A DNA stretch of 64,000 nucleotides from Phycisphaerales bacterium. Lineage in GTDB: Bacteria > Planctomycetota > Phycisphaerae > Phycisphaerales > SM1A02. The notes under the pieces are model-generated. The model worked only from the letters and a program-made list of their open reading frames with translations. It had not been told where the DNA came from and ran no database searches. The DNA lies in the NCBI GenBank assembly GCA_046350355.1, contig JAXMAN010000002.1:70042-134041 (forward strand), in the 5' to 3' direction. The position numbers were made by a program, and so were the translations under genes. The stretch's first letter is position 1, and the number at the start of each line of letters is the position of its first letter. This document shows positions 35,013-52,462 of the stretch, in pieces.

Positions 35013-35133
35013 GCCACGCAGCCTGCAAATCACGGGTTTCCGCTGGTGCCGCGGGGGGCCGGAGGTACCCTTTGGCCAGTGGCGCGCGTGGGGCGCGTCC
35101 GTGCCGACAGCCCGTCCTCGTGAGGAGCCAACG

Positions 35134-37359
35134 ATGAGCATCGCCGCCTTCTCCGCCCGTGCCGCGATCGCGGCGACGGCGGCCCTCGGATGCGCCGCCT
35201 TTGCACAGGTCGACCCGGGGGACTGTGGCGCCTGCTGCGCCGTGCCGCCGCAGGTCTCGGGCTTCACCGCGCCCGCGCTTGTCAGCACCATGGGCGGCGT
35301 CGTCGGCTCGGACTTCGTGGTCCACGCCTTCGGCGTCGGCGGCTGCACCACGCAGCCGCCCGGTCCGTGGGTCAACCCGCCCGCGTTCCGCCATCCCGAC
35401 TGGACGCTCGCGAAGCTCGGCTCGGTCTTCGGCGTGACCGTCGACAGCCAGGGCAACGTCTATGTCGCGCACACTTCCGTCTACGACATCGACGCGCTCG
35501 GCACCGTCGGCGGCGGCGGGGCGGGCGCGATCTACAAGCTCGACAGCGCCACCGGCACGCCGAGCCTCTTCTGCACGCTCCCGAACTCCGCGCCCTGCTC
35601 GACGCCCGGCACCTTCTGCGCGCCCGGCATCGGCAACCTCACTTATTCCTGCGAGCACCACTGCATCTACGCGACCGACTTCGAGGACGGCCGCATCTAC
35701 CGCATCAGCATGACCGGCGCGCTGCTCGAGGCCTACAGCTTCGGCGACCAGGCGATCCAGAGCGCGGCGCCGATGCAGAACGACCCCATCGGCATCGCGC
35801 CCTGGGGCAAGCGCACCTGGGCGGTGGCGGTCGCGGGCGACCGGCTCTACTTCAGCGTCGTCCGCGCGGACATGAGCTACTTCCCGCAGATGCCCGGCGG
35901 CCCGCCGGGACCGCCGTATCCGCCGCCGGCCGCCGACCAGGAGATCTGGAGCATCCCGCTGACGCCCGTGACCGGCGCATTCGCGAGCGGCAACTCCACG
36001 CTCGAGATCCGCGTGCCCAAGTGCAACGTCGGCATCGTCAATCCCTTCAACACGCCGCTGCCGCCGGGCATCCTCTCGAACCCCGTCTCCGACATCGCCT
36101 TCGACGGCGACTGCTGCATGTACCTCGCCGAGCGCACGATGAACGACGCGACGACGACGGGCGCGCACTGCTCGCGGCTGCTCAAGTACTGCCGCGGCAC
36201 CGACGGGACGCCGTGGTCGCCCTCGAACGACCTCTTCGAGGTGGGGCAGACCACCTGCTCGAACATCTCGCTGGCCGCGCCCAACTCCGACGCGGGCGGC
36301 GTGGGCATCGATCCCAGCACCTGCAACCTGGTGTGGACGACCGCCGACTACATGGAGATGCCCTGGTGCAACGGCCCGGGCTGGTACTACGGCATCAACG
36401 GCCTGCCGCTCACCGGCGGCGTGAACGCCGCGGGCCTGCATATCGACATGAACGGCGACGTGAGCTACTTCGACAAGACGCGCATCGGCAGCGTCGAGGT
36501 CGCATGCCGCGTCGCGGATCCGTGCACGGCCAGCGCGGTGGCGACCTGCCATCTTGGCCCCGACGGGCTGCCCGACGGCACCTACGACCTCTCGATCACC
36601 GTGCACAACGGGCTCGACGGGCAGGCCGCGAACTTCATCCTGCTGCCGGATCTGGGCACCTACATCCCGCTGGTGCCGCCGCTGAATCCGGGCGAGTCGC
36701 GCAAGCTCACGACGACCGTCACGGGGCAGGGGCCGGGCACGCTCACGCTCGACATCGGCCTCTTCAACAGCTTCGGCGCCGATGGGCAGTGCTGCGGCAT
36801 CCTCGATGTCGAGGTGGAGCTGCCCGACTGCGACTGCATGCTCGTCGAGCACCTGACCGTCGACTGCACGGACGACCGCGATCCGACGACCTTCTGGTAC
36901 GACGTGCAGTTCACGGTGCGCAACACGAGCGCCTTCGTGGCCTCGCACTTCTTCATCATCCCGGTCTCCGCAGGCGTGACGACCGTGCCGCAGTACGTGG
37001 CGCTGCCGGCGCTGCTGCCGGGCCAGACCGCGCCGATCTCGTTCACCCTCAAGTTCCCCGGTCCGCCGCCGGTCGGACCCGACGGCCTCTGGCACACCTC
37101 GATCAGCTTCAGCATGCACAGCGCGAACCTGGCGATCTGCTGCAAGAAGGTCTGGGAGATCAGCGGTCCGCGCGAGTGCGCCGCGCCGCTGCTGGGCGAC
37201 CTCGACGGCGATGGCGATGTCGACGGCGCCGACCTCGGCCGCATGCTCGCGGCGTGGGGCGCCGCGGCGGCGCCCGGCGCGCCGGGCGACCTCAACGTCG
37301 ACGGCACGGTCGACGGCGTGGATCTGGGCGTGCTGCTGGGCGCGTGGGCGCCCCGCTGA
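35134..37359 (+). CDS. Large secreted protein (741 aa) with C-terminal dockerin-like repeats
   Basis: Signal peptide MSIAAFSARAAIAATAALGCAAFAQ. The body is Cys-rich with beta-propeller-like motifs (NVYVAH, RIYRIS). The C-terminus is [23 protein letters not shown] ... DLNVDGTVDGVDLGVLLGAWAPR. Confidence 0.8.
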   Translation: MSIAAFSARAAIAATAALGCAAFAQVDPGDCGACCAVPPQVSGFTAPALVSTMGGVVGSDFVVHAFGVGGCTTQPPGPWVNPPAFRHPDWTLAKLGSVFGVTVDSQGNVYVAHTSVYDIDALGTVGGGGAGAIYKLDSATGTPSLFCTLPNSAPCSTPGTFCAPGIGNLTYSCEHHCIYATDFEDGRIYRISMTGALLEAYSFGDQAIQSAAPMQNDPIGIAPWGKRTWAVAVAGDRLYFSVVRADMSYFPQMPGGPPGPPYPPPAADQEIWSIPLTPVTGAFASGNSTLEIRVPKCNVGIVNPFNTPLPPGILSNPVSDIAFDGDCCMYLAERTMNDATTTGAHCSRLLKYCRGTDGTPWSPSNDLFEVGQTTCSNISLAAPNSDAGGVGIDPSTCNLVWTTADYMEMPWCNGPGWYYGINGLPLTGGVNAAGLHIDMNGDVSYFDKTRIGSVEVACRVADPCTASAVATCHLGPDGLPDGTYDLSITVHNGLDGQAANFILLPDLGTYIPLVPPLNPGESRKLTTTVTGQGPGTLTLDIGLFNSFGADGQCCGILDVEVELPDCDCMLVEHLTVDCTDDRDPTTFWYDVQFTVRNTSAFVASHFFIIPVSAGVTTVPQYVALPALLPGQTAPISFTLKFPGPPPVGPDGLWHTSISFSMHSANLAICCKKVWEISGPRECAAPLLGDLDGDGDVDGADLGRMLAAWGAAAAPGAPGDLNVDGTVDGVDLGVLLGAWAPR

Positions 37360-37364
37360 CCTCC

Positions 37365-37398
37365 GGAAAATATGCCGGGCATGCCCGGCATATTTTCC
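37365..37398. repeat. 34-nt palindrome copy C (exact)
   Basis: It begins 6 nt after the stop of the 35134..37359 gene and ends 12 nt before the next ATG. Confidence 0.9.
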
Positions 37399-37409
37399 AC
37401 CCGATCCGG

Positions 37410-38327
37410 ATGACCGCAGAGCAGACGATCCAGCGTCCGATCCAGCCGCCATTCGCCAGCGCCGCCTGTCCGCGCTGCGGGCATCGGTGCGAGATCGATC
37501 CGGAACAGCCGCTCGCGCCGGTGCGGTGTCCGGATTGCGGGGGGGAGTTCGTTGGTGGGCGGGTGTGGGACGTCGCGCTCGCGGATCCGGCCGCGCGTCG
37601 GCGCTTCGCGTGGGCGCTGATCGTTGGTGGAGGGGCGTGCGTGCTTGGGATAGTCGCTCGAGAGGCGGGCCCGGTGCTCGTCGCGCTGGGTGTGCAGGTC
37701 GCCCGCGACGGACGCGGTTTTCAAAGCGCATGGATTGAACCGCTCCTGACGCTGATGGCGCATGTCGCGCAGTTCGTTTCCATCCCGGCGCAGTGGATGC
37801 TGCTTCGTGCTGGCCTGGCCGAGGCACGGCGCCCGCGCGCGATCTGGGCAGCGTGGGCGTGGCTGGTCGTGCAGTCGCTGTGCGTGTTGTTCAGCCTGCT
37901 TGTCCTTGCGGTGTGGATGAAGGATCGCGATCCGGGACAGTTCAGGCAGATGCAGGCGACGTATGAATCGATCAGCGGGTCGCTTGGAGGCGTGCCGGGG
38001 AACCTGCACCTTTCGATCGCGTTCGCCATCCCGGCGGGCGTGGCCATCATGCTCCTGCTCCTGGGCCTGCCTTCCCCCGGTTTGGTCGGACGATCGGTGA
38101 AGTTGGCATGCTTGATCATCGCCGCTGGCATCGTGCTGCCGTTCATGGTCCGCAGTGCGATGTCGATCCTGTCTGCGGTGGACTCAAACACGACCGTGCA
38201 GTTGGCCCAATCGGCCGCGTTCCGCGTGATCCACAGCGCAGCCACGCATTGGATCCCGTCTGCCACTGTCGCCATCGGCGGACTCATGCTCCTGCGGACG
38301 GGGATCCGCATGCGGGGCGCGCGATGA
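37410..38327 (+). CDS. Polytopic membrane protein with N-terminal C4 zinc ribbon
   Basis: MTAEQTIQRPIQPPFASAACPRCGHRCEIDPEQPLAPVRCPDCGG is followed by 5-6 TM helices. Its stop overlaps the next start (ATGA). Confidence 0.7.
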   Translation: MTAEQTIQRPIQPPFASAACPRCGHRCEIDPEQPLAPVRCPDCGGEFVGGRVWDVALADPAARRRFAWALIVGGGACVLGIVAREAGPVLVALGVQVARDGRGFQSAWIEPLLTLMAHVAQFVSIPAQWMLLRAGLAEARRPRAIWAAWAWLVVQSLCVLFSLLVLAVWMKDRDPGQFRQMQATYESISGSLGGVPGNLHLSIAFAIPAGVAIMLLLLGLPSPGLVGRSVKLACLIIAAGIVLPFMVRSAMSILSAVDSNTTVQLAQSAAFRVIHSAATHWIPSATVAIGGLMLLRTGIRMRGAR

Positions 38328-38911
38328 AGCCCCGCGCGCCGCGCCGCCTCCGCATCGCCGCGTGGATCGCGATCGCGGTCGCGCTCGGGGCGGCCACGCT
38401 GCAGGTCGCGAGCGTCCGCTGGTCGATGCGCTACGCCTTCGAAGCCGGCCCGCTCAGCGTCTCGCTTGACGCGGCCGATGGGCTCGCCGCGATCTGGGTC
38501 GCGACCAAGACGGGCGTCATGGGCGTCTACGACGTGGGCTGGCACGCCTCCCGCACTTCGCCGGCGCCGGACGAGGGGATCTTCGGTCGCGCGCTCGGCG
38601 GCTCCTGGCGATGGATCCTCGCCGAAGGCGGCAACGAGGTCATCCCGCCGCACGCGCACACGGTCTGGCGGCTGCCCGGCATCATCGAGTACGAGAGCGA
38701 TCCCGGCATGTGGGCGGATGGCGGCGTCGCGCGCACGCTCTCCTTCGTGGTGTGGCCGATCCCCGTGATCGCCGGCGCCTGCGCCTGGTGGCTTTTCGGC
38801 GCGGCGCGCCGCGCGCAGCGGCGCGCGACGGGTCGATGCGTCCGCTGCGGCTACGACCGGACCGGCGTCGCCGCGGGCGCGTTGTGCCCCGAATGCGGCA
38901 CCGCCGCCTGA
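38324..38911 (+). CDS. 2-TM membrane protein with C-terminal C4 zinc ribbon (family member)
   Basis: The N-terminal TM is MKPRAPRRLRIAAWIAIAVALGAA. The C-terminus is WWLFGAARRAQRRATGRCVRCGYDRTGVAAGALCPECGTAA. Confidence 0.7.
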   Translation: MKPRAPRRLRIAAWIAIAVALGAATLQVASVRWSMRYAFEAGPLSVSLDAADGLAAIWVATKTGVMGVYDVGWHASRTSPAPDEGIFGRALGGSWRWILAEGGNEVIPPHAHTVWRLPGIIEYESDPGMWADGGVARTLSFVVWPIPVIAGACAWWLFGAARRAQRRATGRCVRCGYDRTGVAAGALCPECGTAA

Positions 38912-38942
38912 AAATATGCCGGGCATGCCCGGCATGTTTTCC
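38909..38942. repeat. 34-nt palindrome copy D (two mismatches: TGAAAAT... and ...CATGTTTTCC)
   Basis: It overlaps the TGA stop of the 38324..38911 gene. The next gene's ATG is 31 nt downstream. Confidence 0.85.
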
Positions 38943-38972
38943 GCCACGCGCATCTACGATCCGCGCAGCACG

Positions 38973-39701
38973 ATGGAACTCCGCCCCGCGAGCATCGTCA
39001 TCCTCGACATCAGCGGATACACGAAGTTCATCCGGATGCACCGGCTCGCGGTCCTGCACGCGGAGCACATCATCAACGACCTGCTCGAGCACGCGATCGC
39101 CGCCACCGGCGCGCCGCTGGTCGTCAACAAGCTCCAGGGCGACGCCGTCCTCATGTACGCGGTCGCCGACGACCACGCGCCCGCCGCGCGCGCGATCGTC
39201 GAGATGGTCACGCGCTCCTTCGACGCCTTCCGCCGCCGCGAGCTCGAGCTCGTCAGCGACTGCAAGCTCTGCCCGTGCTCCGCGTGCACCAGCGTCCAGA
39301 ACCTGCGCCTGAAGGCGATCCTCCACCACGGCGACGTCGTCTTCAAGCGCATGCGCCAATTCGAGGAGATCGCCGGCCAGGAGGTCATCGTCGCGCACCG
39401 GCTGCTGAAGAACTCGATCGAGGCGGACGAGTACATCCTCGCCACCGACGCCTTCGACCGGCTCTTGGGCGGCGCGATCCCGGGCCACCGCCGCGAGGCG
39501 CGCCAGGAGCAGTGCGAGGGCATCGGCCCCGTCGCGGTCGCCGCGTACTTCGCCCAGGGCGCCGCGCCCGTCGCGCCGCCGCGCCGTACGCTGCTGCAGC
39601 GCGTGGGGATGTCGCTCTCGATGGACATGCACCTGCTCAAGCGCATCTTCCACCGCCCCGAGGGATTCGAGAATCTGCGGGCGGCGCAGGGCGGGCGCTG
39701 A
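38973..39701 (+). CDS. Hypothetical cytoplasmic protein (possibly DUF2652-like)
   Basis: MELRPASIVILDISGYTKFIRMHRLAVLHAEHIINDLLE... A conserved-looking core. A Cys cluster is CKLCPCSAC. The family assignment is from memory only. Confidence 0.6.
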   Translation: MELRPASIVILDISGYTKFIRMHRLAVLHAEHIINDLLEHAIAATGAPLVVNKLQGDAVLMYAVADDHAPAARAIVEMVTRSFDAFRRRELELVSDCKLCPCSACTSVQNLRLKAILHHGDVVFKRMRQFEEIAGQEVIVAHRLLKNSIEADEYILATDAFDRLLGGAIPGHRREARQEQCEGIGPVAVAAYFAQGAAPVAPPRRTLLQRVGMSLSMDMHLLKRIFHRPEGFENLRAAQGGR

Positions 39702-39755
39702 CAGCTGCGCATCGCCGCGCACCGTTTCGATGCACCGCTCACCGAGGAGAGATCC

Positions 39756-40901
39756 ATGACCCGCTTCCGGATGGCGTTCGTTTCGACCCTGCTCGCACTG
39801 CTCGCGGCCGCCGTGGCGCATGCCGGAGAGGAGAAGGCGATCCCGATCGGCGGCGCGACGCTGCACATCGCGGTGCCCGAGGGATGGAGCAGCAGCATCG
39901 ACAACCAGACGCCGCCCACGATCACGCTCAAGGCCGCCGATCCGTCGAAGGCGAACCTGCTGCTCACCGCGGTCGGTCCGCAGACGACCGACGCCGCGCT
40001 GCGCAAGGCCGCGCTCACGACGGGGAACTTCTACGCCCCCGGTTCGGTGGAGAAGAAGGTCACGTTCACGGAGGTCAAGGGCAAGGCGATCCACGGCTTC
40101 ATGTCCAGCTACACCGACGCGAGCAAGGGCACGGTCGAGTTTCGATATGTGACGGCGGGAAACCTCGTCAGCGGCAAGCGGGAGTTCATCGCGACCCTGC
40201 TGACGCAGTCGAAGGACGCGCCCGAACGCGCCGCCGGGCTCGAGGCGATCCGCTCGATCTCCGTCGTCGCGGACGGTCCCGAGGGCGCGCCCGCGGGTGC
40301 ACCCGCCGGCGGGGCCGCGTCGAAGTCCGCATCGCGCGACGAACTGCGCATTCCCAGCCCCGACGGCTCCTGGGTGCTGGTCCTGCCCGGGAAGTGGCGG
40401 TCGCGCGGCGTGCAGGTTTCGCCGGACGGCAAGGCCGCGCAGGCCTCGGCGATCTCGGCCAACGGGCTGATGATGACGATCTTCCTGGAGCCGGCCGCGC
40501 AGTCCGACGGGAACGCCGAAGCCGCGCGCGCCTTCTACCTCGAGCGGATGAAGGAGAACCCGCTGGGCATGGACGGCCTCAAGCAGCAGCTCGTCGGCGA
40601 GGTCGCCACGCTCGAGTACGACCAGGGCCTGGGCGACTTCACGCAGCACAACCTGAACGCGTACCTCGCGCACAAGGGCATCTGGGTCGACGTCCATGTC
40701 TCGAAGCCCGGCTTCAACGAACGCACCGACCGCGCGACGATCGACGCGCTCGTGAAGGGCATGCGCGCGGAGGATCGGACGCAGAAGTCGCTGGATGGCG
40801 GCTCGGGGTCCAAGGCGCAGGGGACGAAGCAGCAAGGGTCGAAGCAGCAGGGCTCGAAGCAGCAAGGCACGAAGCAGGGGGCGACGCCGCAGAATCCGTA
40901 G
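39756..40901 (+). CDS. Secreted hypothetical protein
   Basis: GGAGAG lies upstream. Signal peptide MTRFRMAFVSTLLALLAAAVAHA. The C-terminal repeats are QGTKQQGSKQQGSKQQGTKQ. Confidence 0.7.
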   Translation: MTRFRMAFVSTLLALLAAAVAHAGEEKAIPIGGATLHIAVPEGWSSSIDNQTPPTITLKAADPSKANLLLTAVGPQTTDAALRKAALTTGNFYAPGSVEKKVTFTEVKGKAIHGFMSSYTDASKGTVEFRYVTAGNLVSGKREFIATLLTQSKDAPERAAGLEAIRSISVVADGPEGAPAGAPAGGAASKSASRDELRIPSPDGSWVLVLPGKWRSRGVQVSPDGKAAQASAISANGLMMTIFLEPAAQSDGNAEAARAFYLERMKENPLGMDGLKQQLVGEVATLEYDQGLGDFTQHNLNAYLAHKGIWVDVHVSKPGFNERTDRATIDALVKGMRAEDRTQKSLDGGSGSKAQGTKQQGSKQQGSKQQGTKQGATPQNP

Positions 40902-41077
40902 CAGGGGAACACGCCGTCGGCGCCGCAGGGGTGAGGGATGAAAGGCCGCGTCACCTGCGCGGTTATCAAGCAGGAATGCCACTTGCGCAGGTGCCGGAGA
41001 GACCCTATGATTCCCCGTTCCGAGATGGGGCGCGCGCGATGTTCGAAGTAGCGCACGCGCGCCCCTCCGGAAGTTTT

Positions 41078-41149
41078 GCGGGTGTAACTCAGTGGTAGAG
41101 TGCCACCTTGCCAAGGTGGATGTCGAGGGTTCAAGTCCCTTCACCCGCT
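41078..41149 (+). tRNA. tRNA-Gly (anticodon GCC)
   Basis: GCGGGTG-TA-ACTC-AGTGGTA-GAGT-G-CCACC-TTGCCAA-GGTGG-ATGTC-GAGGG-TTCAAGT-CCCTT-CACCCGC-T. The cloverleaf has a 7-bp acceptor stem, a GTTCAAGT T-loop and a GCC anticodon. No CCA is encoded. Confidence 0.9.
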
Positions 41150-41155
41150 CTCCGA

Positions 41156-41188
41156 AAAGGCCCTCCTTGCGAGGGCCTTGTCGTTTTT
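41156..41188 (+). terminator. Intrinsic terminator of tRNA-Gly
   Basis: GGCCCTC-cttgc-GAGGGCC followed by TTGTCGTTTTTGG. Confidence 0.6.
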
Positions 41189-41209
41189 GGCACCGAAACT
41201 GGCACCGAG

Positions 41210-41446
41210 TCATCTCTGTCGATGCACAAGATCGCCTGCGCGAGGAAGCTCCACCTCGGCGTAGACCTCGGTCACCGGAGTGTGCTGGTGGCCAGCGACG
41301 ATGACGCCCTCGGCGTCCACCACGATGGGCTGGCGGAAGCCGAACTGGCGGATGCTCTGGGCGACCGCGGCGACGGCGTCGTCGTTGTCGCGGGGGTTGC
41401 CCGGGTAGGGACGGATCGAGCCGGTCGGCCGCAGCTCGACCTTCAC
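41210..41446 (-). pseudogene. ParB-like nuclease N-terminal domain fragment (truncated)
   Basis: 78 aa: ELRPTGSIRPYPGNPRDNDDAVAAVAQSIRQFGFRQPIVVDAEGVIVAGHQHT matches the ParB/Srx N-domain (NPR ... SI..G...PI.V...G.iiaGh.R). It stops after the domain, 58 nt from the tRNA 3' end. There is no partner C-terminal domain. Confidence 0.5.
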
Positions 41447-41580
41447 GTGGTCCCCCGGCGGTTCAGGTTGTCGGCAAGGCGATCGCTCACGCAGGGCTCC
41501 TGCGGGGCGACGCGCTCATCGTCGCATGCGCAGGGGCGGTGTCAAGCGGGCGGGAAGGGAATCTGAACTACGCTGCGGGC

Positions 41581-42057
41581 GTGCGCTTCCTGAAGCGGCT
41601 GACGATCCGGCTCCGGTGGCCAGCGGTGGTGGTGGCCGCCGCATTGCTAGCCGTCATCGCGCTGTCATGTCGCTATTCGTGGTTCGGCAGACTGCAGTGG
41701 GGGAACTCGACCTGGTCGCTGGGGGTCAACGCCACGGTCGTCGGGGGCCGCTGGAATGCGGACGTCTATCGGGACAACCTCGAGTACTTCCAATGGTTGG
41801 GACGGGCCGATTGGTCCGCATGGAGCATGGGAACCTACTTCGTCGCGAAAGCCTATGAGGACGTCCTGGCAGGCGCGTGGTTCGCGATGTGTCCGATCTG
41901 GTGGCTTGCGCTTCCGCCTGCGCTGCTCGCAGTCGCGGGCTTCCGCCTGAAGCGCCGCGAACAGACGCCCGGCCAGTGCAAACGCTGCGGCCACCCGCTA
42001 GCCGGCGCGGTGGTGTGCCCCGAGTGCGGCACGCCTGCGCCAGCATCGGCCGCGTGA
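41581..42057 (+). CDS. 2-TM membrane protein with C-terminal C4 zinc ribbon, tandem paralog 1 (GTG start inferred)
   Basis: VRFLKRLTIRLRWPAVVVAAALLAVIALS is TM1. The middle is a W-rich loop. TM2 is WWLALPPALLAVAGF. The tail is RLKRREQTPGQCKRCGHPLAGAVVCPECGT. Start is placed at the conserved GTG shared by the three paralogs. Confidence 0.6.
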   Translation: MRFLKRLTIRLRWPAVVVAAALLAVIALSCRYSWFGRLQWGNSTWSLGVNATVVGGRWNADVYRDNLEYFQWLGRADWSAWSMGTYFVAKAYEDVLAGAWFAMCPIWWLALPPALLAVAGFRLKRREQTPGQCKRCGHPLAGAVVCPECGTPAPASAA

Positions 42058-42259
42058 GCACGCGTCGACCGCGCGAAGAGTTATCTCAGCGGCCACTCGC
42101 ATCGCCGATTTGGACCAGATTTGGACCAGCGCATCCGTGCGCGTGTGTTTCCGTCTGCGCGTATCCGTCGCGACTATCGGCACTCAACCCCTTGTCCCCG
42201 CGTGCGTTGTGTGCTGATGTGTTCCGAAGTGGTGCGGAGTGCTACGCGACATTTCGCAC

Positions 42260-42306
42260 TTTGCCAAGGTGGATGTCGAGGGTTCAAGTCCCTTCCCCCG
42301 CTCTCC
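42260..42306 (+). repeat. Direct copy of the 3' half of tRNA-Gly (anticodon loop to 3' end plus 4-nt trailer), 45/46 identity
   Basis: TTGCCAAGGTGGATGTCGAGGGTTCAAGTCCCTTCCCCCGCTCTCC versus tRNA TTGCCAAGGTGGATGTCGAGGGTTCAAGTCCCTTCACCCGCTCTCC. Confidence 0.85.
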
Positions 42307-42307
42307 T

Positions 42308-42340
42308 GACGGCGCTCTGACGAGCGCCGTCTTTCGTTTT
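42308..42340 (+). terminator. Intrinsic terminator following the tRNA-fragment copy
   Basis: GACGGCGCTC-tgac-GAGCGCCGTC followed by TTTCGTTTTGG. Confidence 0.5.
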
Positions 42341-42452
42341 GGCATGCGGGGGAACTGATCGCTTCGAGCTGCCGCGCTGCGACACGCCGACGCCCGTGCG
42401 CGGAGGGCCGGTGTGGGGCGAACAACGTGGGGGCGCTCACTACGCTGCGCGC

Positions 42453-42941
42453 GTGCGCTTCCTGAAGCGGTTGACGATCCGGCTCCGGTGGCCCGCTGCG
42501 GTGCTGGTTGGGCTGCTCACACTCGGATTCGTCTGTTCGGCTTTCTGGGGGTGTCGAGTCGACCTGAGCTTCCTCGGGAGTTGGTGGATCCTCGACCTTG
42601 GAAACACGATCGCCACCCTCACTCAATACGATTCACAGCTCGATCCTGGGCGACCCTCTCCGGATTTGGTTGTGACCGGCTACTCAGTCAAGTGGTATCC
42701 GATCGAGGATTTCGACCTCTTCCTCAATGCGTGGGTCCGGAAGGGATCTTGGCCGGGGGTCGACTGGGTCGCACGGCTGCCACTCTGGTATCTCGCACTA
42801 CCTCCGGCCCTGCTCGCCATCGCGGGGTTTGTCATGAAGCGCCGCGAACCGAAGCCCGGCCAGTGCCAGCATTGCCGCCACCCGCTCGCCGGCGCGGTGG
42901 TGTGCCCCGAGTGCGGCACGCGACCACTCGCCGCGTCCTGA
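42453..42941 (+). CDS. 2-TM membrane protein with C-terminal C4 zinc ribbon, tandem paralog 2 (GTG start inferred)
   Basis: VRFLKRLTIRLRWPAAVLVGLLTLGF... The C-terminus is LAIAGFVMKRREPKPGQCQHCRHPLAGAVVCPECGT. Confidence 0.6.
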   Translation: MRFLKRLTIRLRWPAAVLVGLLTLGFVCSAFWGCRVDLSFLGSWWILDLGNTIATLTQYDSQLDPGRPSPDLVVTGYSVKWYPIEDFDLFLNAWVRKGSWPGVDWVARLPLWYLALPPALLAIAGFVMKRREPKPGQCQHCRHPLAGAVVCPECGTRPLAAS

Positions 42942-43141
42942 TCTCGCCTTGAATCCAACGAGCTGCCTCCGCTGCCACTCATCACGCAACATCGGCCCCT
43001 CCGCCGTCCCGTAATCGCATTCGTTGACTGTCGCGCGTGACTCCACGCGCGTTCAATGCGACGCTCTGGTTGCCGCGGAGTGCGCCACCGGCCATCCGCG
43101 CACGCCCGCTCATCCACTCAATCGCCCCACCTCCCCCAACC

Positions 43142-43831
43142 ATGCCGCGCATTCCCGGGACCATCGCCGCGACCCTCCTCGCCGCACTCGGGGCGGCCCA
43201 CGCGCACGGCGAGGTCCTCTGCCTCGAGGGCACCCATCACTCCACCGACTTTCGGCTGCGCCCACACGACCTGATCATCGCGACGGCAGACCTCACGCTC
43301 TCGTGCGCGCGGACCCTGCGGATCGAGGGGCGCATCGTGGCGGCGCCGAGCTGCTCGATCCACCTCGTCGCGACCGAGCTGATCATCGACGACGGCCGGG
43401 TCTACGCGGGCGACGGTCTCTCGACCCACGCGATCGACGGCGACGGCGGCAAGGGGGGCGATGTCGTGCTGAACGCGCAGCGGATCACGATGTCCGACAC
43501 TGTCATCCGCGCGGGTCGTGGCGGGAACGCGGGACCGTCGGGCAACGGCGGCGCGGGAGGGGATATCCGAATCATCGGGACCCCCGAGAACAGCATCGAT
43601 GCAACCGTGATTCTCGACACGGGCGCCGCCGGCGAGGGCGGCGACGGCATCAGCGGCTTCTCCGAGGCCGCGCGCGCCGGAGGCAATGGCGGAGACGCGG
43701 GCAACCTCATCGTCAACGTCGCCTGGTGGTCGACGGGGGAGCGGCCCGCGCCGCCTCCAGTCCGGTCGCCAGTCAAGAACGCGCAGCGTGCCGTGGGTGC
43801 TTCGCGGATGGGGTGCGTGGCGGTGGATTGA
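43142..43831 (+). CDS. Secreted Gly-rich beta-helix-like repeat protein
   Basis: Signal peptide MPRIPGTIAATLLAALGAAHAHG. Repeats are GDGGKGGDVV, GRGGNAGPSGNGGAGGDIRI and GAAGEGGDGISG. Confidence 0.6.
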   Translation: MPRIPGTIAATLLAALGAAHAHGEVLCLEGTHHSTDFRLRPHDLIIATADLTLSCARTLRIEGRIVAAPSCSIHLVATELIIDDGRVYAGDGLSTHAIDGDGGKGGDVVLNAQRITMSDTVIRAGRGGNAGPSGNGGAGGDIRIIGTPENSIDATVILDTGAAGEGGDGISGFSEAARAGGNGGDAGNLIVNVAWWSTGERPAPPPVRSPVKNAQRAVGASRMGCVAVD

Positions 43832-43895
43832 GGGGTCGGGCGGCGGGGGACGCTGCGTCCGATGGCGAAGAAACCTCCCGCGATACGCTGCCTTC

Positions 43896-44423
43896 GTGCG
43901 CTTCCTAAAGCGGCTCGCAATCAAGCTCCGGTGGCCCGCGGCGATCGTGGCCGGGCTGCTCGTCGCGGTGGCGGGCTGGTCCTGCCTCTACTGCCAGTCC
44001 GTGGTGATGCGCACATCCTCGCGGATGCTCTCGATCCAGTACGAGCGGCTGCGGTGTGGCGTGGTGCTGATGGAGTCGGGCGTCGACTGGGGCAACGAGT
44101 GGGACCTGCGGTTCAACTCGCGCGACGCGAATTGGCAGACGGTCGCGCGCGCGCCGTGGGATTCGCTCTGGCGGACGATTTGGACCGCCCCGCGGCGCAG
44201 CGGCCTCGCGAACACGGTCTCGGGCGTCTCGTTCCCGATCTGGTACCTCGTGCTTCCGTCGGCGGCGCTTGCGATCGTGGGCTTTCGACTCAAGCGTCGG
44301 GAGCCGCGGCCCGGGCATTGCGTTCGCTGCCGGTATCCGCTCGCGGGCGCGGCGGCGTGTCCGGAGTGCGGGACGGCGGCGCCGCTCACTCCGGACGCAC
44401 CCCCGCCCCCGCCCGCGACGTAG
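43896..44423 (+). CDS. 2-TM membrane protein with C-terminal C4 zinc ribbon, tandem paralog 3 (GTG start inferred)
   Basis: VRFLKRLAIKLRWPAAIVAGLLVAVAGW... The C-terminus is LAIVGFRLKRREPRPGHCVRCRYPLAGAAACPECGTAAPL. Confidence 0.6.
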   Translation: MRFLKRLAIKLRWPAAIVAGLLVAVAGWSCLYCQSVVMRTSSRMLSIQYERLRCGVVLMESGVDWGNEWDLRFNSRDANWQTVARAPWDSLWRTIWTAPRRSGLANTVSGVSFPIWYLVLPSAALAIVGFRLKRREPRPGHCVRCRYPLAGAAACPECGTAAPLTPDAPPPPPAT

Positions 44424-44474
44424 CATCGCCCCACCGGGCCGCGACCGCCGCCCAGCGCTTTCCCGGAGGCCTCC

Positions 44475-45863
44475 ATGCTCGGCACGCTGCTCCTGACCCA
44501 CGCCGTCGCGATCGCGCTCGCCCAGGACGCGCCGCATGCCGACCCCGCGACGACGGCGCCGCCCGATCCGCCGCGCCACCCCGCGCTCGACAACCCGAAC
44601 TTCCAGCGCGGAAAGGTGGTCGAGTTCCCCAACGGCCTCACCGGACGCATCGGCTCCAGCTGCGTCTCGCCGCCCTTGAGCACGCTCCTGACGCCCGAGA
44701 CATGGATCGACGTCGCTCGCGCGACGACTGCGCTCGACCTGGATCCCGCGGGCGCCGCGGCGGGCTCGCTTCGTTCCGCCGCAGAGGCCTTTCGAGCGGC
44801 GCTTCGGGAGCGGCGCACCCGGGACTGGCGTCCGGCCGCGGACCGGATCAATGCGTCGATCGCCGAGAACGAGGCGCACCAGGTCGTCGATGACGAGCGG
44901 CTGCGCGCCGCCACCGCCGTCTTCTACCGCGACTGCGCGCTGGAGTCGATGCGCAACTTCGACGAGGAGTCGGCCGCGCTCGTGCGCGCGCTCGCCAGCG
45001 CTTCGGGCGGGGAGCTCGATCCGCAGGTCGCGCAGCGCGCATCGCGGTCGCTCTGGCGGACGCGCGTCACGGAGTTCCTTGGCGATTGGTCATCGATCCC
45101 GATGCCGCCGGTCGTCTCGATCCTGCTGCGCACGGAGATCGCCGGCGCACAGGTGAAGGCCGGCCACAAGGATGCCGTCGAAGCCATCCTCCAGCAGTTC
45201 GAGCCGCTGTGGGACGCTTCCTTGCGCGATCTCCTCAATGCGCACGCACGCGCTTTCACGAAGACCGAGGACACTCCGAGCGTGCTGCGTCCGGTCTCGG
45301 CCATCGTCGACCGCATGACCGACGCGGACGCGCGCGCGATCGCGGAGCTCGCGCCCCACCTGGACGATCCGGAGCTGCGGTGGACGCACGCTGTCCTCGT
45401 CCGCCGCTGTCCGCACGCGCGCGCCGTCGCCGATGCTTGGCTCGGCATCTCGCACCTGGCCGCGACCGCCGCCGATCCCGCGATTCGCACGCGGCTCGTG
45501 GCCGCCTCGGAGCTCCTTCGATCGCAGGTCGACGCGATGGCGCTCGTCTACCGCGATGGTTGGCGCGGGATCATCATCCACGGCGCGACGCCGACCCATC
45601 CGGAAGTCGCGAACTACGGCCCCGAGATGCGCAAGATCGCTCGGGATGCGCAGCGGCAGGCGCTGGCGCTGATCGCGACCATCGATGGCGCTGCCTCCGA
45701 GGCCGGGCCCGCCGACGCGATGATGGTCGCGCGCGCCACCCGCGACGCGCTGGTGCCGGTGACTGGCAAGCTGGAAGACGGCAAGCTTGCCGCGAAGGCC
45801 ATCGCGCCCGGCTGGCCGCCGATGGTGTGGACCAATGATGCCGGGGCGATGGTGCCGCGGTGA
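44475..45863 (+). CDS. Secreted hypothetical protein
   Basis: Signal peptide MLGTLLLTHAVAIALAQDAP. 462 aa, soluble, helical composition. Confidence 0.65.
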   Translation: MLGTLLLTHAVAIALAQDAPHADPATTAPPDPPRHPALDNPNFQRGKVVEFPNGLTGRIGSSCVSPPLSTLLTPETWIDVARATTALDLDPAGAAAGSLRSAAEAFRAALRERRTRDWRPAADRINASIAENEAHQVVDDERLRAATAVFYRDCALESMRNFDEESAALVRALASASGGELDPQVAQRASRSLWRTRVTEFLGDWSSIPMPPVVSILLRTEIAGAQVKAGHKDAVEAILQQFEPLWDASLRDLLNAHARAFTKTEDTPSVLRPVSAIVDRMTDADARAIAELAPHLDDPELRWTHAVLVRRCPHARAVADAWLGISHLAATAADPAIRTRLVAASELLRSQVDAMALVYRDGWRGIIIHGATPTHPEVANYGPEMRKIARDAQRQALALIATIDGAASEAGPADAMMVARATRDALVPVTGKLEDGKLAAKAIAPGWPPMVWTNDAGAMVPR

Positions 45864-47434
45864 GCGGGGAGGAGTCCCTTCTCGCTGTGATGCGCGACAC
45901 CGGTGCCTCCCGAGGTACGCTGTCGCCTGTGCGCACTCGACCGTGGGGAACTCCGCGCCATTCGCGCTTCGGCGCACCGCTCATCGCGGGCGTACTCACA
46001 CTTTCCCTCGCCTCCGCCACCTGTCTCGCGCAGTCGCCATCTGAGCCACCGCCGGCGACTCCATCCACGCGCGGGGACGACACGACGCCGCCCGTCCCCG
46101 TCGCCGAGGCGCCGCCTGCGACCGTCCTGTTCCCGGAGAGCCACTTCTCGATGTACTACCCGCCGCGGCCGATCGACCGGTCCGACGCGGCGTTCTATGT
46201 CTGGATCTCGGGCGCGGAAGGCGTCGACGCGGAGCAGATCCGGCAGTGGACGCTTGCACTCGCGGATCTGGATCCGGCGTGGATCAAGAGCGCCTTCGCG
46301 AACGTGCGCACCACGGCCAATGCATGCGCACTCGCGGGGATGAAGCATCCGCCGGCGGCGGAGCGTGCGCGCGACCTCGAAGCCTTGGCAAACATGCGCG
46401 ACACCGCGGCGGAGGGTATCGCCGCCAAGGAGCGCGCATTCCTGTGCTCCTTCCTCTCGCCCGATGCAGGCGATGCCGACCGGCGATCCGTGCTGATCGA
46501 CCGCGTCATGCAGGCCCGCAACGCGGAAGCGATCGAACTGACCATCACTGCGTCCGGCCACTGCGACGCTATGCCGATGCGCCTGCTGCACCGTGCCGCC
46601 ACAGACCAGCGCATTTCGCCTGAAGGGGCCGTCGCGCTTCGCCAGCTCGCCATAGACAACGCGGCGCGCGTCTATCAGCTTCGTCTGAGCACTGTTGCCG
46701 AAGCCATCCACCTGGCGCACCGCGCGGCGGCATCCCGAGCCGCGGCGGAGAGCCGTGGCGAATCGCAGGTTGGTGCGTCCGCTCCCGCTTACCGCGCCGT
46801 CGTTCTCGCCGCGGAACGTGCCGCGGAACTTCACCGCGAGCTGCTCCGGCTTGCCAGCACCTCCATGCCAGAAGCACTCGCTTCGGAGATCGACGCCGCC
46901 TACAAGGAGCAGGCATACGATCTCCTCGGCCGTGACGCGTTCTCCTTCGACCCAATCGTGGCGGCGCTTCGGCCACTCATGGCGCCGGAGGCACAGCACA
47001 CCGCCGACGAGTTGACTGCCGCCGACCGCAGCTATCGACGGGCGATGCACGATGCGGCGCTCGAACTCTTCGACCGGACCGTGAATCGCATGGTCCGCCG
47101 TGGACGCGTGGTGGATCCAGAGGAATCCGCACGTTTCGCGAACGCGCTCATCGCGTATCACGAGAACGCGTACAGGAGCGCGGGGCGCACGATCGACTCC
47201 CTCGCCGAGCTCGCCCGAGCGCGGGATGGTTGGGACGAACCGACTTACCAGCGGCTCCGCGCAGACTGGGAGAAAACTGTCCGATCGCGACTCAAGGAAC
47301 TGATGAACCGCGGCGTGACATCGCGCGCGGCGAGCGATGACCTGTTCGACCGCGAGGGCACCATCACGCCCGCGTCGGACTCCGTCATGCTTCGGAAGCA
47401 GAGGGCCCCGAACATGCATGCAGCCCCCCGGTGA
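45860..47434 (+). CDS. Secreted hypothetical protein (GTG start overlapping upstream stop, GTGA)
   Basis: An internal signal-like segment is RFGAPLIAGVLTLSLASATCLAQS. Alternative starts at M11 are possible. 524 aa. Confidence 0.55.
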   Translation: MSGEESLLAVMRDTGASRGTLSPVRTRPWGTPRHSRFGAPLIAGVLTLSLASATCLAQSPSEPPPATPSTRGDDTTPPVPVAEAPPATVLFPESHFSMYYPPRPIDRSDAAFYVWISGAEGVDAEQIRQWTLALADLDPAWIKSAFANVRTTANACALAGMKHPPAAERARDLEALANMRDTAAEGIAAKERAFLCSFLSPDAGDADRRSVLIDRVMQARNAEAIELTITASGHCDAMPMRLLHRAATDQRISPEGAVALRQLAIDNAARVYQLRLSTVAEAIHLAHRAAASRAAAESRGESQVGASAPAYRAVVLAAERAAELHRELLRLASTSMPEALASEIDAAYKEQAYDLLGRDAFSFDPIVAALRPLMAPEAQHTADELTAADRSYRRAMHDAALELFDRTVNRMVRRGRVVDPEESARFANALIAYHENAYRSAGRTIDSLAELARARDGWDEPTYQRLRADWEKTVRSRLKELMNRGVTSRAASDDLFDREGTITPASDSVMLRKQRAPNMHAAPR

Positions 47435-48164
47435 TTCGTTCGTACTCGCCGTGACTCCGCCGCGCTCGTCCAACTCCCTTCGCACGGCCTTCCTTCCCGC
47501 TCCCGTCCCCGCGCCGGTGCGGACGCTCGCCATCGCTTCGCGCCTCTGCCTGATCGCGGCTTGGGTTGGCGCGTTGCTCGTCACGGGCGAGCTTGCCTGC
47601 GACGCCATTCTCAGAAACTTCGGCACGCCCTCCACGAGCGCGTGGGTCTGGGCCTTGGGCGCGCGCTGGGGCGCAATCCTCACCGCGCTCGCCGTGCTGA
47701 CCGCGCTGCTGTGCCCGCTCGTCTCGATCACCCTCGACCGCATGCGCCTGAGCCGCACGGAGGAGATGGCGCGCGCCCGTGCCTGCAATCGCTGCGGCTA
47801 CGCCGACGCGGGCACCGGCGAACGCTGCAGCGAGTGCGGCGCGGCGCCGGTGCAGCACGTCGCGCCGCCGCTCTCGGCGGTGCTCGCCTACACGGGCGGC
47901 GGGTTCTTCGGCCTCGGCGCGGGCCGCGGCGCGAACGCGCAGCTGGGCGATTCCGTGGGGAACGCGCTCCACGCGGCCGCCTCTGCGCAGTGGATTCAAC
48001 GCATCGACCGCGCGCTGTTCACCCTCATCGTCGTCAACATCGTGCTCACGCAGCGGCCGCTTGGCGTCCCGATGTCGATGAGCCTGGTGCTCCTGCCCTT
48101 CGTCGCGGCGGCAATCCTGCTGCGGATCACGATCCGCCACTGCATGTCATTTCGGGCGCTGTGA
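47418..48164 (+). CDS. Membrane protein with internal C4 zinc ribbon (divergent family member)
   Basis: TM helices flank the zinc ribbon ARACNRCGYADAGTGERCSECGAAP. The start is uncertain and overlaps the upstream gene end. Confidence 0.5.
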   Translation: MQPPGDSFVLAVTPPRSSNSLRTAFLPAPVPAPVRTLAIASRLCLIAAWVGALLVTGELACDAILRNFGTPSTSAWVWALGARWGAILTALAVLTALLCPLVSITLDRMRLSRTEEMARARACNRCGYADAGTGERCSECGAAPVQHVAPPLSAVLAYTGGGFFGLGAGRGANAQLGDSVGNALHAAASAQWIQRIDRALFTLIVVNIVLTQRPLGVPMSMSLVLLPFVAAAILLRITIRHCMSFRAL

Positions 48165-50281: not shown

Positions 50282-52462
50282 TCACCCCCAACTCCCCAGC
50301 AGCAGCCCCAGGTCCGCGCCGTTCACGACGCCGTTGCCGTCGATGTCGGCGCGGCCGTCGGCGCCGCCGGTGCTGCCCCAGGCGCCCAGGAGCAGGCCGA
50401 GGTCGCTGCCGTCGGTGACGCCGTCGCCGTTGAGGTCGCCGGGGCTGGCGACGCCGCCCTGCGTGAGCACCTCCTGCGGCACGATCTCCGTGCTGCGGCC
50501 GGGGCCGCTCCACTTGAACTGGAAGCCGGCGCCGCCGCCGTTCTCGAAGAACTCCAGCCGCACCGGGTGCTTGCCCGCGCGCAGCGCGACCGTGCCGCTG
50601 CGCGTGGTCATGCCGTGCAGGCCGTCGTTGTCGGCGATCACCGTGCTGCCGATGCGCATGCGCGAACCGTCGTCCGAGGTGATCGAGAAGGTCCAGCGTC
50701 CGTCGGTGGGCACCTCGACCCAGCCTTCGTAGACCGCGCCGACCTCGTCCGCGCGGCCGCTGCCCGCGTAGACGCCGTCGGTGCTCGCGTAGTTCACGTT
50801 CGCGACCGTCTCCACCAGGTAGGGGGTGAGCGCGGCCCAGTTGGGCAGCGCCTGCGGTGCGGTGAGCGCGTAGTAGCTGCAGCGCAGCCCCGCGGTCGCG
50901 CCCGCGGGCGCCCACGGCGCGCGCGGCTGGTCGAGCGTCACGGTGACGGTCGCATTGGCCGTCGCGCCCGAGACCGGCTCGCGGAGCTGGTAGCTGAAGG
51001 TGCGCGCGCCGCTCGTCGCGTCGGGCGCGGGCACGAGCTGCACCAGGTCACGGCCGCCGATGCCCGCCCCGGGAAGCACCGTCAGCGCGTCGCCCTTGGA
51101 GGTCAGCGTCGCGCAGCTCGCGATCTCCAGCGCGTCCATGTTGGGGTCGTAGTCGTTGCTGAGCACATCGAGCGCCATCGTCACCGTCGTCACGCCGAAG
51201 AAGATGTCTGCGTTCGCGACCGGCGCCGCCGGCACCGACGCGTTCACCGCGGCCTGCACCGCCTTGCGCAGGTTGATGCGCCCGAAGCCCAGCGCCTCCG
51301 TCTCCGCCGCGCCGCCCCACGCGTCGCAGGTGTGCATCAGGTAGTACTCGGCCTGCGCCGCGCTCAGCGCGGGATTGGCGGCGCGGATCAGGCCCAGCGC
51401 GCCGTTGGCCACGGGCGCGGCCATGCTCGTGCCGCTCGCGAATCCGTAGCCGCCGTCGTTGGTGGTGCTGAGGATGCTGCTGCCGGGGGCGAAGAGATCC
51501 ACGCCGCGTCCGTAGCTGGAGAAGCTCGAGCGCTGGTCGGAGCTGTTGCTCGCGCCGACGACGATCACATGCTCGAAGTCCCAGCCCGCGTGGTCGTCGG
51601 CGGAGTTGCCCGCGGCCCAGAGCAGGCTCGCGTCGAGCGTGCGGATGTACTCGCCGGTGGTCTCGATCGCCTCGTAGCCGATGCCGCTGTAGCTGGCGCT
51701 CACGGACTTCGCGCCGTGTTCGGCCGCCCAGCGCGCGCCGGAGAGCAGCGCGTCGAAGCTGGCGCCGCCGCTGGCCGCCTCGCTGACGCGGATGGGCATG
51801 ATGCCCAGGTTCCAGCCCATGCCGCAGACGCCGACGCCGTTGTTGCCGCTCGCCGCGGCGCAGCCCGCGACGTGCGTGCCGTGGCCGTGGATGTCGGTCA
51901 TCACGCCGCCGTTGGCCTCCGCGACCCCCGAGACCGCGTTGTAGCCCGAGACGCGGTTGGTGAGGTCCGCGTGCGTGATGATCCCGGTGTCGGTCACGGC
52001 GACGACCACCGCGGTCGTGCCCGTCACGATGTCCCACGCGAGCGGGCTCTGCATCATCGAGTGGTGCCACTGCTCGCCGAAGCGCGGATCGTTCGGCACG
52101 CCCACGGGGTAGACGGTCCAGTTCGGATGCGCGTACTGGAAGAGACCGGTCGCCATGAGCTGCGCCGCCACGCGCGACTCCGCGGCGCCCGGGCGCTCCG
52201 GTCCCTTGGCGACGCCGATCACCAGCTCGCCCGTCTCGGGGTAATCGCGACGCACCACTCCCGCGAGCTGCTGCTGCGCGAGCGCGCGCGCCGCGATGCC
52301 CAGGTCCTGGCGCGGCCGCACGATGAGCTCGCCGCTGAACTCGCGCTCGCCGGGGATCTCCGTGAAGGGCATCGCGCTGCCGCTGGCGGGGGCGATGGGC
52401 GAGGGGACGCCGGCGGCAACCTGCTGCATCGGCGCGAGGGCGAGGATCAGGATCGGGAGCAT
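50282..52462 (-). CDS. Subtilisin-like S8 serine protease with PA14 domain and C-terminal dockerin-like repeats
   Basis: Signal peptide MLPILILALAPMQQVAAG. The catalytic triad motifs are VAVTDTGI, HGHGTHVAG and GTSMAAP. The PA14-like region is GLRCSYYALT...GRWTFSITSDDGSRMRIG. The C-terminus is DLNGDGVTDGSDLGLLLGAWG ... DIDGNGVVNGADLGLLLGSWG. Confidence 0.9.
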   Translation of the reverse strand: MLPILILALAPMQQVAAGVPSPIAPASGSAMPFTEIPGEREFSGELIVRPRQDLGIAARALAQQQLAGVVRRDYPETGELVIGVAKGPERPGAAESRVAAQLMATGLFQYAHPNWTVYPVGVPNDPRFGEQWHHSMMQSPLAWDIVTGTTAVVVAVTDTGIITHADLTNRVSGYNAVSGVAEANGGVMTDIHGHGTHVAGCAAASGNNGVGVCGMGWNLGIMPIRVSEAASGGASFDALLSGARWAAEHGAKSVSASYSGIGYEAIETTGEYIRTLDASLLWAAGNSADDHAGWDFEHVIVVGASNSSDQRSSFSSYGRGVDLFAPGSSILSTTNDGGYGFASGTSMAAPVANGALGLIRAANPALSAAQAEYYLMHTCDAWGGAAETEALGFGRINLRKAVQAAVNASVPAAPVANADIFFGVTTVTMALDVLSNDYDPNMDALEIASCATLTSKGDALTVLPGAGIGGRDLVQLVPAPDATSGARTFSYQLREPVSGATANATVTVTLDQPRAPWAPAGATAGLRCSYYALTAPQALPNWAALTPYLVETVANVNYASTDGVYAGSGRADEVGAVYEGWVEVPTDGRWTFSITSDDGSRMRIGSTVIADNDGLHGMTTRSGTVALRAGKHPVRLEFFENGGGAGFQFKWSGPGRSTEIVPQEVLTQGGVASPGDLNGDGVTDGSDLGLLLGAWGSTGGADGRADIDGNGVVNGADLGLLLGSWG

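Follow-up and report, generated by a model that had tools for sequence, protein, structure and literature searches.

What are the predicted membrane proteins with a four-cysteine (C4) zinc ribbon that are encoded close together in a metagenome-assembled Phycisphaerales genome, and what could such a ribbon be doing at the inner face of the membrane? The stretch in question (hereafter the window) comprises 64,000 nucleotides of contig JAXMAN010000002.1 (assembly GCA_046350355.1); all positions below are in window numbering, unless a contig of another organism is named. Six open reading frames (ORFs), all on the plus strand and denoted here A to F, encode these proteins, which a first-pass annotation had described as a six-member family with three members in tandem, B to F sharing one architecture and A carrying the ribbon at the N-terminus instead. 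Judged by sequence comparison, four of them, B to E, belong to a very large, uncurated, almost Planctomycetota-restricted family of small inner-membrane hairpin proteins, and the window is a local, partly element-associated cluster of this hairpin zinc-knuckle family, not a peculiarity of the genome. The six genes and the segments that encode their zinc knuckles are the following.

37410-38327, plus strand: gene A, ATG start, 305 aa; knuckle-coding segment 37467-37541
38324-38911, plus strand: gene B, ATG start, 195 aa; knuckle-coding segment 38837-38899
41581-42057, plus strand: gene C, GTG start, 158 aa; knuckle-coding segment 41977-42030
42453-42941, plus strand: gene D, GTG start, 162 aa; knuckle-coding segment 42864-42917
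43896-44423, plus strand: gene E, GTG start, 175 aa; knuckle-coding segment 44319-44372
47418-48164, plus strand: gene F, ATG start, 248 aa; knuckle-coding segment 47784-47840

All six frames are open over the previously annotated extents, and the products of C and D are identical to proteins in NCBI (locus tags U0625_06800 and U0625_06805). In C, D and E, the residues YAA that directly precede each annotated GTG start are conserved among paralogs and homologs, and the true starts of these three genes may therefore lie upstream, for example at the in-frame GTG 41539 in the case of C. The C4 pattern C..C-x5-25-C.[ED]CG has six matches in the six-frame translation of the window, all on the plus strand, within 37.4-48.2 kb and inside ORFs A to F. 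In 200 random sequences generated with the dinucleotide transition frequencies of the window, the mean number of matches is 0.03 and the maximum is one per sequence, so that the shared feature is real and reflects neither chance nor low complexity.

Genes C, D and E are clear paralogs, with pairwise identities of 40-43% (E-values of 1e-32 to 1e-37). The alignment of B with these three is confined to the second transmembrane (TM) segment, TM2, and the tail (1e-6 to 1e-10), that of F with the family is confined to one TM segment and the ribbon (5e-7, with gene E), and A aligns weakly with the others, over the cysteines only. When compared with a profile of 80 family members from other organisms, in which the window sequences were left out, E, C, D and B score end to end (128.7, 123.5, 120.3 and 97.3 bits, respectively), F reaches 21.6 bits, local to the TM segment and the ribbon, and A scores -16.9 bits. 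By these external scores, the proposed family of six is reduced to four full members, B to E, with F as a partial relative and A unrelated. The single architecture proposed for B to F likewise applies to B to E and fails for F, which has four TM segments and carries the ribbon in a central, predicted cytoplasmic loop; in A, the ribbon itself is unrelated. Gene F is best described as a different membrane protein that bears a family-type ribbon, and gene A as a polytopic membrane protein with a generic C4 ribbon (CPRC-x17-CPDCG at the N-terminus, followed by at least four TM segments) that lacks the family signature and is not a family member; no relatives of A were found among the related loci. 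As for the three genes in tandem, C and D do adjoin; D and E are separated by an unrelated 264-aa ORF (43037-43831), which has no domains and, by eye, a signal-peptide-like N-terminus.

In B to E, hydropathy analysis indicates a basic N-terminus and two TM segments that flank a loop, and the order of elements is the same in all four: basic N-terminus, TM1, Trp-rich loop, TM2 (which usually begins with P-[LI]-W), a poly-Arg stretch and the knuckle motif CxxCG[YH]xLxG..CPECG. The loops are indeed rich in Trp (6.7-11.3%) and measure 71-105 aa, compared with the 80-100 aa given initially. The tail sequences quoted in the first-pass annotation are exact; the tail peptide is RLKRREQTPGQCKRCGHPLAGAVVCPECGTPA, and the typical family version reads RRRRxPGHCxKCGYDLTGNVSGxCPECG. 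By the positive-inside rule, both termini of B to E are predicted to be cytoplasmic and the loop periplasmic, and zinc binding is suggested by the four invariant cysteines, each pair of which lies in a knuckle context. The ribbons of C, D and E, with a spacer of nine residues between the cysteine pairs, fit the family signature exactly. Gene B, in which a conserved, predicted periplasmic domain of 105 aa precedes TM2, continues with RRAQRR and then CVRCGYDRTGVAAGALCPECG, with a spacer of 12 and Arg replacing Leu, and the ribbon of gene F, CNRCGYADAGTGERCSECG, has a spacer of 10, Asp in place of Leu and CSECG in place of CPECG. For C, an AlphaFold2 model built from a 14-sequence alignment (predicted local distance difference test, pLDDT, 75) contains a TM1 helix (residues 2-31), a beta-meander (34-105, uncertain over 69-96), a TM2 helix (106-126) and then the ribbon; a model of B from a 5-sequence alignment had a pLDDT of only 49.8.

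The size of the family became apparent from profile searches. Word-indexed searches yielded 11 relatives with gene C alone and four with gene B alone. An exhaustive HMMER search of 1.84 billion cluster representatives (50%-identity clusters) with a 14-sequence profile gave 30,978 representatives with E<=1e-3, of which 700 had E<=1e-10; most are 150-200 aa long and align with the profile end to end. The tail is thus kept far outside the source genome, so that the refuting condition named in the first-pass annotation, a tail not conserved elsewhere, does not apply. Many matches of about 300 aa hold two family units and some hold three or four, including called proteins with three to four complete units (P0036, 1508 aa; P0044, 545 aa; P0074, 574 aa). 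In a second search, with an 84-sequence profile, 7,064 of the 8,000 scored candidates had E<=1e-5. A family consensus, G-x-C-x-x-C-G-[YH]-[DNP]-L-x-[GA]-x3-6-C-P-E-C-G, was derived from 318 ribbons in 266 proteins, with the following composition.

Arg at positions -10 to -6 relative to the first Cys: 42-67%
The 14 residues before the first Cys: on average 4.9 Arg/Lys and 0.5 Asp/Glu
Gly at position -2: 83%
Following the first C-x-x-C: G 72%, Y 84% (H 12%), D 64%, L 92%, any residue, G or A 96%
Length of the spacer that separates the two cysteine pairs: 9-12 residues in 98%
Second knuckle: C, P 96%, E 97%, C, G 100%
From the ribbon to the C-terminus: median 11 residues

The combination of the hairpin architecture with this signature is covered by no curated family. 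The earlier remark that no family name came to mind is borne out, as the six window proteins and 84 relatives all stay below the cut-offs of the Pfam and NCBIfam models; the window proteins show only sub-threshold similarity to generic ribbons, and among the relatives only occasional generic zinc-ribbon matches were obtained (4 of 84 at E<=1e-3). The generic models, Zn_Ribbon_1 (PF13240), Zn_ribbon_3 (PF13248) and DZR (PF12773), resemble the family in describing short CxxC...CxxC elements on TM proteins; they differ in being signature-free cysteine patterns, to which the family adds the poly-Arg stretch, G-x-C, G-Y-D-L-x-G, C-P-E-C-G, the P-L-W start of TM2 and the hairpin. Window proteins score 11-19 bits with these models, compared with cut-offs of 25-27, and the best sub-threshold matches are those of C and D (for C, 19.4 bits vs a threshold of 27.3 with DZR and 18.2 vs 27 with Zn_ribbon_3). 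All 120 matches listed from the second profile search are named 'hypothetical protein', except for one automatic 'Nop10', and nearly all are without a Pfam assignment. In a sequence profile search of the PDB, the only matches were artefacts, in which CPECG aligned with designed C2H2 fingers, and non-significant ones to ribosomal and RNA polymerase ribbons, and no fold relation was found in the PDB. No paper on the family was found in the literature collection that was searched, through signature strings or through zinc ribbons in Planctomycetes/Planctomycetota.

The taxonomic range was assessed by scanning one genome per GTDB species with a back-translated CGY[DN]L...CPECG DNA pattern. The resulting set of at least 120 loci is a sample and not a census, because the pattern is GC-biased and the listing gives a lower bound. 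Among the loci listed, 118 of 120 come from Planctomycetota (named Phycisphaerae, Tepidisphaerales, Planctomycetales, Planctomycetaceae, Isosphaeraceae or Planctomycetota). The only listed locus named for another phylum (L046, JANQQE010000030.1) comes from a metagenome-assembled genome labeled Alphaproteobacteria, which could reflect horizontal transfer or mis-binning; the other locus without a Planctomycetota name (L101) belongs to an unclassified bin.

The ribbon is not confined to the hairpin proteins. A family-type ribbon is found at the N-terminus of a family of polytopic proteins of about 250 aa in 21 of the 120 loci listed, and 72 larger ribbon-bearing ORFs include single fusions to an amino-acid permease, a Ser/Thr kinase, a redoxin, RDD, MFS, LRR and PrsW. 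These are stop-to-stop ORFs, not curated gene models, so that every fusion case needs checking. All-against-all clustering of the ORFs within 8 kb of the family genes in the 120 loci showed that the sole recurrent neighbour of a family gene is another family member; genes from outside the family did not recur, the most frequent unrelated clusters (GroEL and a MoxR-like ATPase) being present in five loci each, and a conserved operon partner was accordingly rejected. Among the loci listed, two or more copies within 8 kb were detected in 28 of 117 with a stricter ribbon pattern and in 37 of 116 with a looser one. Locus L001 has two copies side by side, and same-strand arrays of 3-8 copies, spaced by about 0.45-0.9 kb, are present in L029 (1029-2003), L054 (87-5972), L055 (1719-3302), L061 and L075 (123-3448), so that the local expansion emphasized in the first-pass annotation is not special to the window.

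Gene B and the C/D/E group appear to follow different evolutionary modes. Orthologs of B share 88%, 55% and 51% identity with it and the long loop is well conserved; B belongs to a conserved orthologous subgroup, unlike the fast-changing C, D and E. The ortholog with 55% identity (P0014) stands alone, flanked by a glycoside hydrolase gene and gyrB. In the window, A overlaps B by four nucleotides (ATGA); this overlap is not a conserved pairing because P0014 stands alone, and a functional A-B pair was rejected, given that nothing resembling A lies next to P0014 and that the loci contain no relatives of A.

Genes C, D and E share two conserved ends, which we refer to as handles and which surround a loop-coding middle that is dissimilar among the copies.

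41567-41635 (C), 42439-42507 (D), 43882-43950 (E), plus strand: 5' handle, direct repeat D2, 69 nt, 91% and 78% identity; 14 nt upstream of the start and the codons for VRFLKRLTIRLRWPA
41878-42034 (C), 42765-42921 (D), 44220-44376 (E), plus strand: 3' handle, direct repeat D1, 157 nt, 80% and 70% identity; TM2, the poly-basic stretch and the ribbon

The same modularity is seen in comparisons with other organisms. The segment 41299-42060 corresponds to positions 2216-3014 of the contig L124; DNA identity is about 97% over 41299-41628, a ParB pseudogene included, drops sharply to about 40% over the loop-coding part (41629-41880) and rises to about 80% over 41881-42060, which encodes TM2 and the ribbon. 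In the protein P0007, encoded on a second contig, identity with E is 99% over residues 1-120 and then falls through 80%, 66% and 53% to 40% across TM2 and the ribbon. In a third (L125), a homolog of w462, the ORF downstream of E in the window, comes directly after a gene of the C/D/E type; the homolog shares 68.6% identity with w462, the C/D/E-type gene only about 44% with C, and the hairpin gene thus diverges much faster than its w462-type neighbour. Because these three comparisons share the modular pattern, they indicate that modules were probably exchanged between paralogs at the conserved gene ends. The fast evolution suggested in the first-pass annotation therefore holds for the loops of C, D and E. 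L124 has an extra 2.1 kb between the tRNA end and the shared region, with a 474-aa gene that has a signal-peptide-like N-terminus; the product of this gene was considered as a relative of the ParB fragment or of the window neighbours, and no relation was found.

The near-invariant tail on many unrelated membrane proteins and the variable periplasmic part suggest a generic role for the ribbon at the inner face of the membrane. The scheme that we favour, with a probability of roughly one half, is that the Arg-rich zinc knuckle would be a portable, membrane-proximal docking tag for one common cytoplasmic partner or site, through which many different membrane proteins would be linked to that shared partner, and that, in the hairpin proteins, diversified periplasmic domains would be connected to this partner or site. 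Specificity would then reside in the variable periplasmic domain, diversified in C, D and E by duplication and by recombination between the conserved 5' and 3' gene ends; gene F would be another membrane protein with the same tag, and gene A would stand outside the scheme. Gene C itself lies within what looks like a decayed mobile-element remnant at tRNA-Gly. The structural description of the family stands on much firmer ground than the docking.

It is from zinc-ribbon precedents in ZitP and GltJ that the docking scheme derives its preference. In ZitP of Caulobacter crescentus, the zinc module is reported to dock PopZ (PMC5182063, PMC5182065, PMC11135422), and in GltJ of the gliding machinery of Myxococcus xanthus, the zinc ribbon (ZnR) binds an internal linker and MglB (PMC11135422). 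ZitP resembles B to E in being an inner-membrane protein with a small cytoplasmic C4 module next to its anchor and, in the periplasm, a domain that has no recognised fold; it differs in that its ribbon is N-terminal (MJ0042-type, Pfam Zn_ribbon_4/5), that of B to E being C-terminal, and in that its partner PopZ is known from Alphaproteobacteria. The MJ0042-type ribbon of ZitP is, moreover, longer-spaced than the family ribbon, and we know of no multi-copy, tandemly arrayed family of ZitP proteins. The MJ0042-type models PF13717 and PF13719 do not match B to F, and gene A, although its spacing resembles the MJ0042 type, has only a non-significant similarity to PF13717 (E 0.57, 10.6 bits vs a cut-off of 30.3). 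GltJ is likewise a membrane protein with a cytoplasmic zinc ribbon that serves as a switchable docking module, but its ZnR is N-terminal, accompanied by a GYF domain and a linker, and part of a defined machine, and B to E have no GYF domain, linker or conserved operon. ZnR-containing membrane receptors have been noted in planctomycetes (PMC11135422). Cytoplasmic zinc-ribbon membrane proteins as such are therefore already known, and it is the signature and the hairpin architecture of the present family that are undescribed.

Several points weigh against the docking scheme and its evolutionary component. No docking partner was found, and zinc binding, topology and the interaction itself are predicted. 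Apart from the cysteines, the conserved residues could have a purely structural role, the spacer of 9-12 residues is shorter than that of classical three-stranded zinc ribbons, and no sequence or fold relation to ZitP or GltJ is detectable. Each fusion partner was found once only, in stop-to-stop ORFs. The mosaic relies on two short metagenome contigs, L124 (3.0 kb) and P0007 (0.9 kb), which could be chimeric across the conserved gene ends, and further close relatives that replicate it were not found, a metagenome scan having returned distant relatives only. A further-reaching version of the scheme, which we put forward tentatively and hold to be less probable than the docking itself, treats the knuckle as a phylum-wide address tag that would gather dozens of different membrane proteins per genome, among them hairpin proteins, permeases, kinases and proteases, on one cytoplasmic scaffold or membrane domain, with the hairpins as a recombining repertoire for periplasmic recognition; the scaffold would perhaps be linked to the invaginated membrane system of Planctomycetota.

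Of the competing explanations, the one that survives best, although we regard it as rather unlikely, is that the module is a topogenic or structural anchor: the poly-Arg stretch and the knuckle would fix the end of the TM segment on the cytoplasmic side and stabilise small proteins, with no dedicated partner involved, and the hairpins would be structural or periplasm-facing components. This would account for the position of the module, always directly beside a TM segment and preceded by about five Arg/Lys, for its presence on unrelated membrane proteins at N-termini, C-termini or in loops, and for the lack of a conserved partner gene nearby; the conserved G, Y, L, P and E would fit the geometry of the knuckle and a mini-core. 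In other bacteria, however, positive charges alone set the topology, and the near-invariance of Y, L, P and E over tens of thousands of clusters in one phylum suggests phylum-specific recognition.

An association with mobile elements could point to another function, namely exclusion or immunity, in which the variable loops would guard against phages or periplasmic toxins and the arrays would be collections of specificities spread by integrative elements. The tRNA and attachment-site context mentioned in the first-pass annotation is real and comprises the following features.

41078-41150, plus strand: tRNA-Gly (GCC)
41104-41153 and 42257-42306: the last 50 nt of tRNA-Gly and their recurrence (96% identity), 1.15 kb apart
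41157-41179 and 42308-42331: terminator-like hairpins, different from each other, after the two copies of the tRNA end
41210-41446, minus strand: 78-aa truncated ParB-like / phage DNA-methylase N-terminal fragment, directly after tRNA-Gly

The 1.1-kb segment between the two tRNA-end copies contains gene C and the 78-aa minus-strand ORF and no integrase-sized ORF. The 78-aa ORF matches Pfam ParB_N with an E-value of 0.0045, which is below the curated cut-off, and tblastn retrieved 297 phage records with it (best E-value 1e-15, about 50% identity). Gene C thus looks like part of a decayed remnant of a mobile element integrated at tRNA-Gly, not of an active element. Besides this location, the slightly lower GC content at 40-44 kb (0.67-0.68, compared with 0.70-0.75 elsewhere in the window, for an overall range of 0.67-0.75), the tandem arrays of divergent copies and the mosaic replacement of loops would all be compatible with immunity cargo. 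Nevertheless, PADLOC and PHROG gave no match for the six proteins and four neighbours, neither a toxin nor an integrase gene recurs as a neighbour, orthologs of B are located among housekeeping genes and the family spans the whole phylum, all of which makes such a role improbable. A viral origin of the family was rejected as well: the DNA pattern was detected in only 6 of 2.9 million viral contigs in IMG/VR, compared with at least 120 genome loci.

Slightly more doubtful still is a membrane-tethered nucleic-acid binder, whose knuckle would hold RNA or DNA and so tether transcripts, ribosomes or the nucleoid. Basic zinc knuckles bind in this manner in retroviral nucleocapsid and in some ribosomal proteins, a strongly basic stretch adjoins the CxxC...CxxC knuckle here, and the weak similarities among PDB ribbons, once the two top rows, which are designed C2H2 artefacts, are set aside, are to bL32 (E 0.026), eL37, RpoP and Spt4. 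These similarities are non-significant, though, the spacer of 9-12 residues offers little binding surface, there is no aromatic-rich RNA-binding pattern apart from one Tyr, and the gene context carries no hint of nucleic-acid metabolism.

Finally, the first-pass annotation had likened the proteins to zinc-binding anti-sigma factors (ZAS) and signalling adaptors. The cytoplasmic zinc module would in that case hold an extracytoplasmic function (ECF) sigma factor and free it upon a periplasmic signal. In ZAS proteins, the motif H-x3-C-x2-C lies inside an N-terminal anti-sigma domain that is far longer than 35 residues or so and is encoded next to an ECF sigma gene. A two-round hidden Markov model (HMM) search, seeded with Escherichia coli RpoE, identified two ECF-type sigma-like ORFs in the window.

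61267-62010, minus strand: strong match, 13 kb from the cluster
483-1184, minus strand: weak match, 36 kb from the cluster

Although some proteins of the ZAS group (to which RsrA, ChrR and RslA belong) likewise combine a membrane anchor, a cytoplasmic zinc site and an extracytoplasmic domain, all three of which are predicted here, and although Planctomycetes are described as an ECF-rich phylum (PMC7826278), this reading is very improbable and largely refuted by motif, domain, tail size and gene context, since none of the six proteins contains the H-x3-C-x2-C motif, the anti-sigma and zf-HC2 models of Pfam gave no match even at E<=1, the zinc module spans only about 20 residues, the entire cytoplasmic tail is about 35 residues long and C-terminal rather than N-terminal, the tag is present also on permeases and kinases, there is no conserved non-family neighbour and ECF sigma genes are not adjacent, with an ECF-like ORF inside 8 kb in only 2 of about 120 related loci by the same kind of HMM search.

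The remaining surroundings of the cluster include the following features.

18531-18556, 33836-33861, 37364-37397 and 38910-38943: four copies of a 34-nt perfect palindrome, CGGAAAATATGCCGGGCATGCCCGGCATATTTTC, none expected by chance
35101-37359, plus strand: dockerin-bearing 752-aa protein upstream of A, ending in dockerin-like GDxNxDGxVDxxDL repeats
39756-40901: 381-aa ORF just upstream of tRNA-Gly, with C-terminal GSKQQ/GTKQQ repeats
44475-45863, plus strand: w462, 462 aa, no recognised domain; hydrophobic, signal-peptide-like N-terminus by eye
45860-47434, plus strand: w524, 524 aa, no recognised domain; hydrophobic, signal-peptide-like N-terminus by eye
50282-53554, minus strand: large protein with subtilase S8, Big_9, PA14 and dockerin domains, ending in the same type of dockerin-like repeats (GDxNxDGxVDxxDL)

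Two of the palindrome copies, 37364-37397 and 38910-38943, flank the A-B pair, and the palindrome looks like a repetitive extragenic palindromic (REP)-like element or a bidirectional terminator. Downstream of B, there are a DUF2652 protein and the 381-aa protein. The latter has no family match; its GSKQQ/GTKQQ repeats are encoded by a 15-nt tandem repeat in four overlapping copies (40806-40880). Genes E, w462, w524 and F form a tight run on the plus strand (43896-48164), with a 51-nt gap followed by overlaps of 4 and 17 nt, which opens and closes with a ribbon-bearing membrane protein and may be co-transcribed as one operon. A 681-aa ORF on the opposite strand is also among the immediate neighbours. 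Far upstream, a plus-strand ORF at 27431-27625 encodes a pair of C4 ribbons in succession (CSGCG...CAACG and CRRCG...CGACG), whose type differs from that of the family.

Altogether, the hairpin zinc-knuckle family ranks among the larger groups of membrane proteins that lack annotation in Planctomycetota, a phylum with a debated cell biology. The window provides a concrete case of how this family evolves, in which tandem duplication, module exchange and a decayed tRNA-linked element are seen side by side. With the family defined and the target of its tail found, tens of thousands of 'hypothetical proteins' would gain an annotation, and that target could reveal a phylum-specific organisation of membrane proteins.

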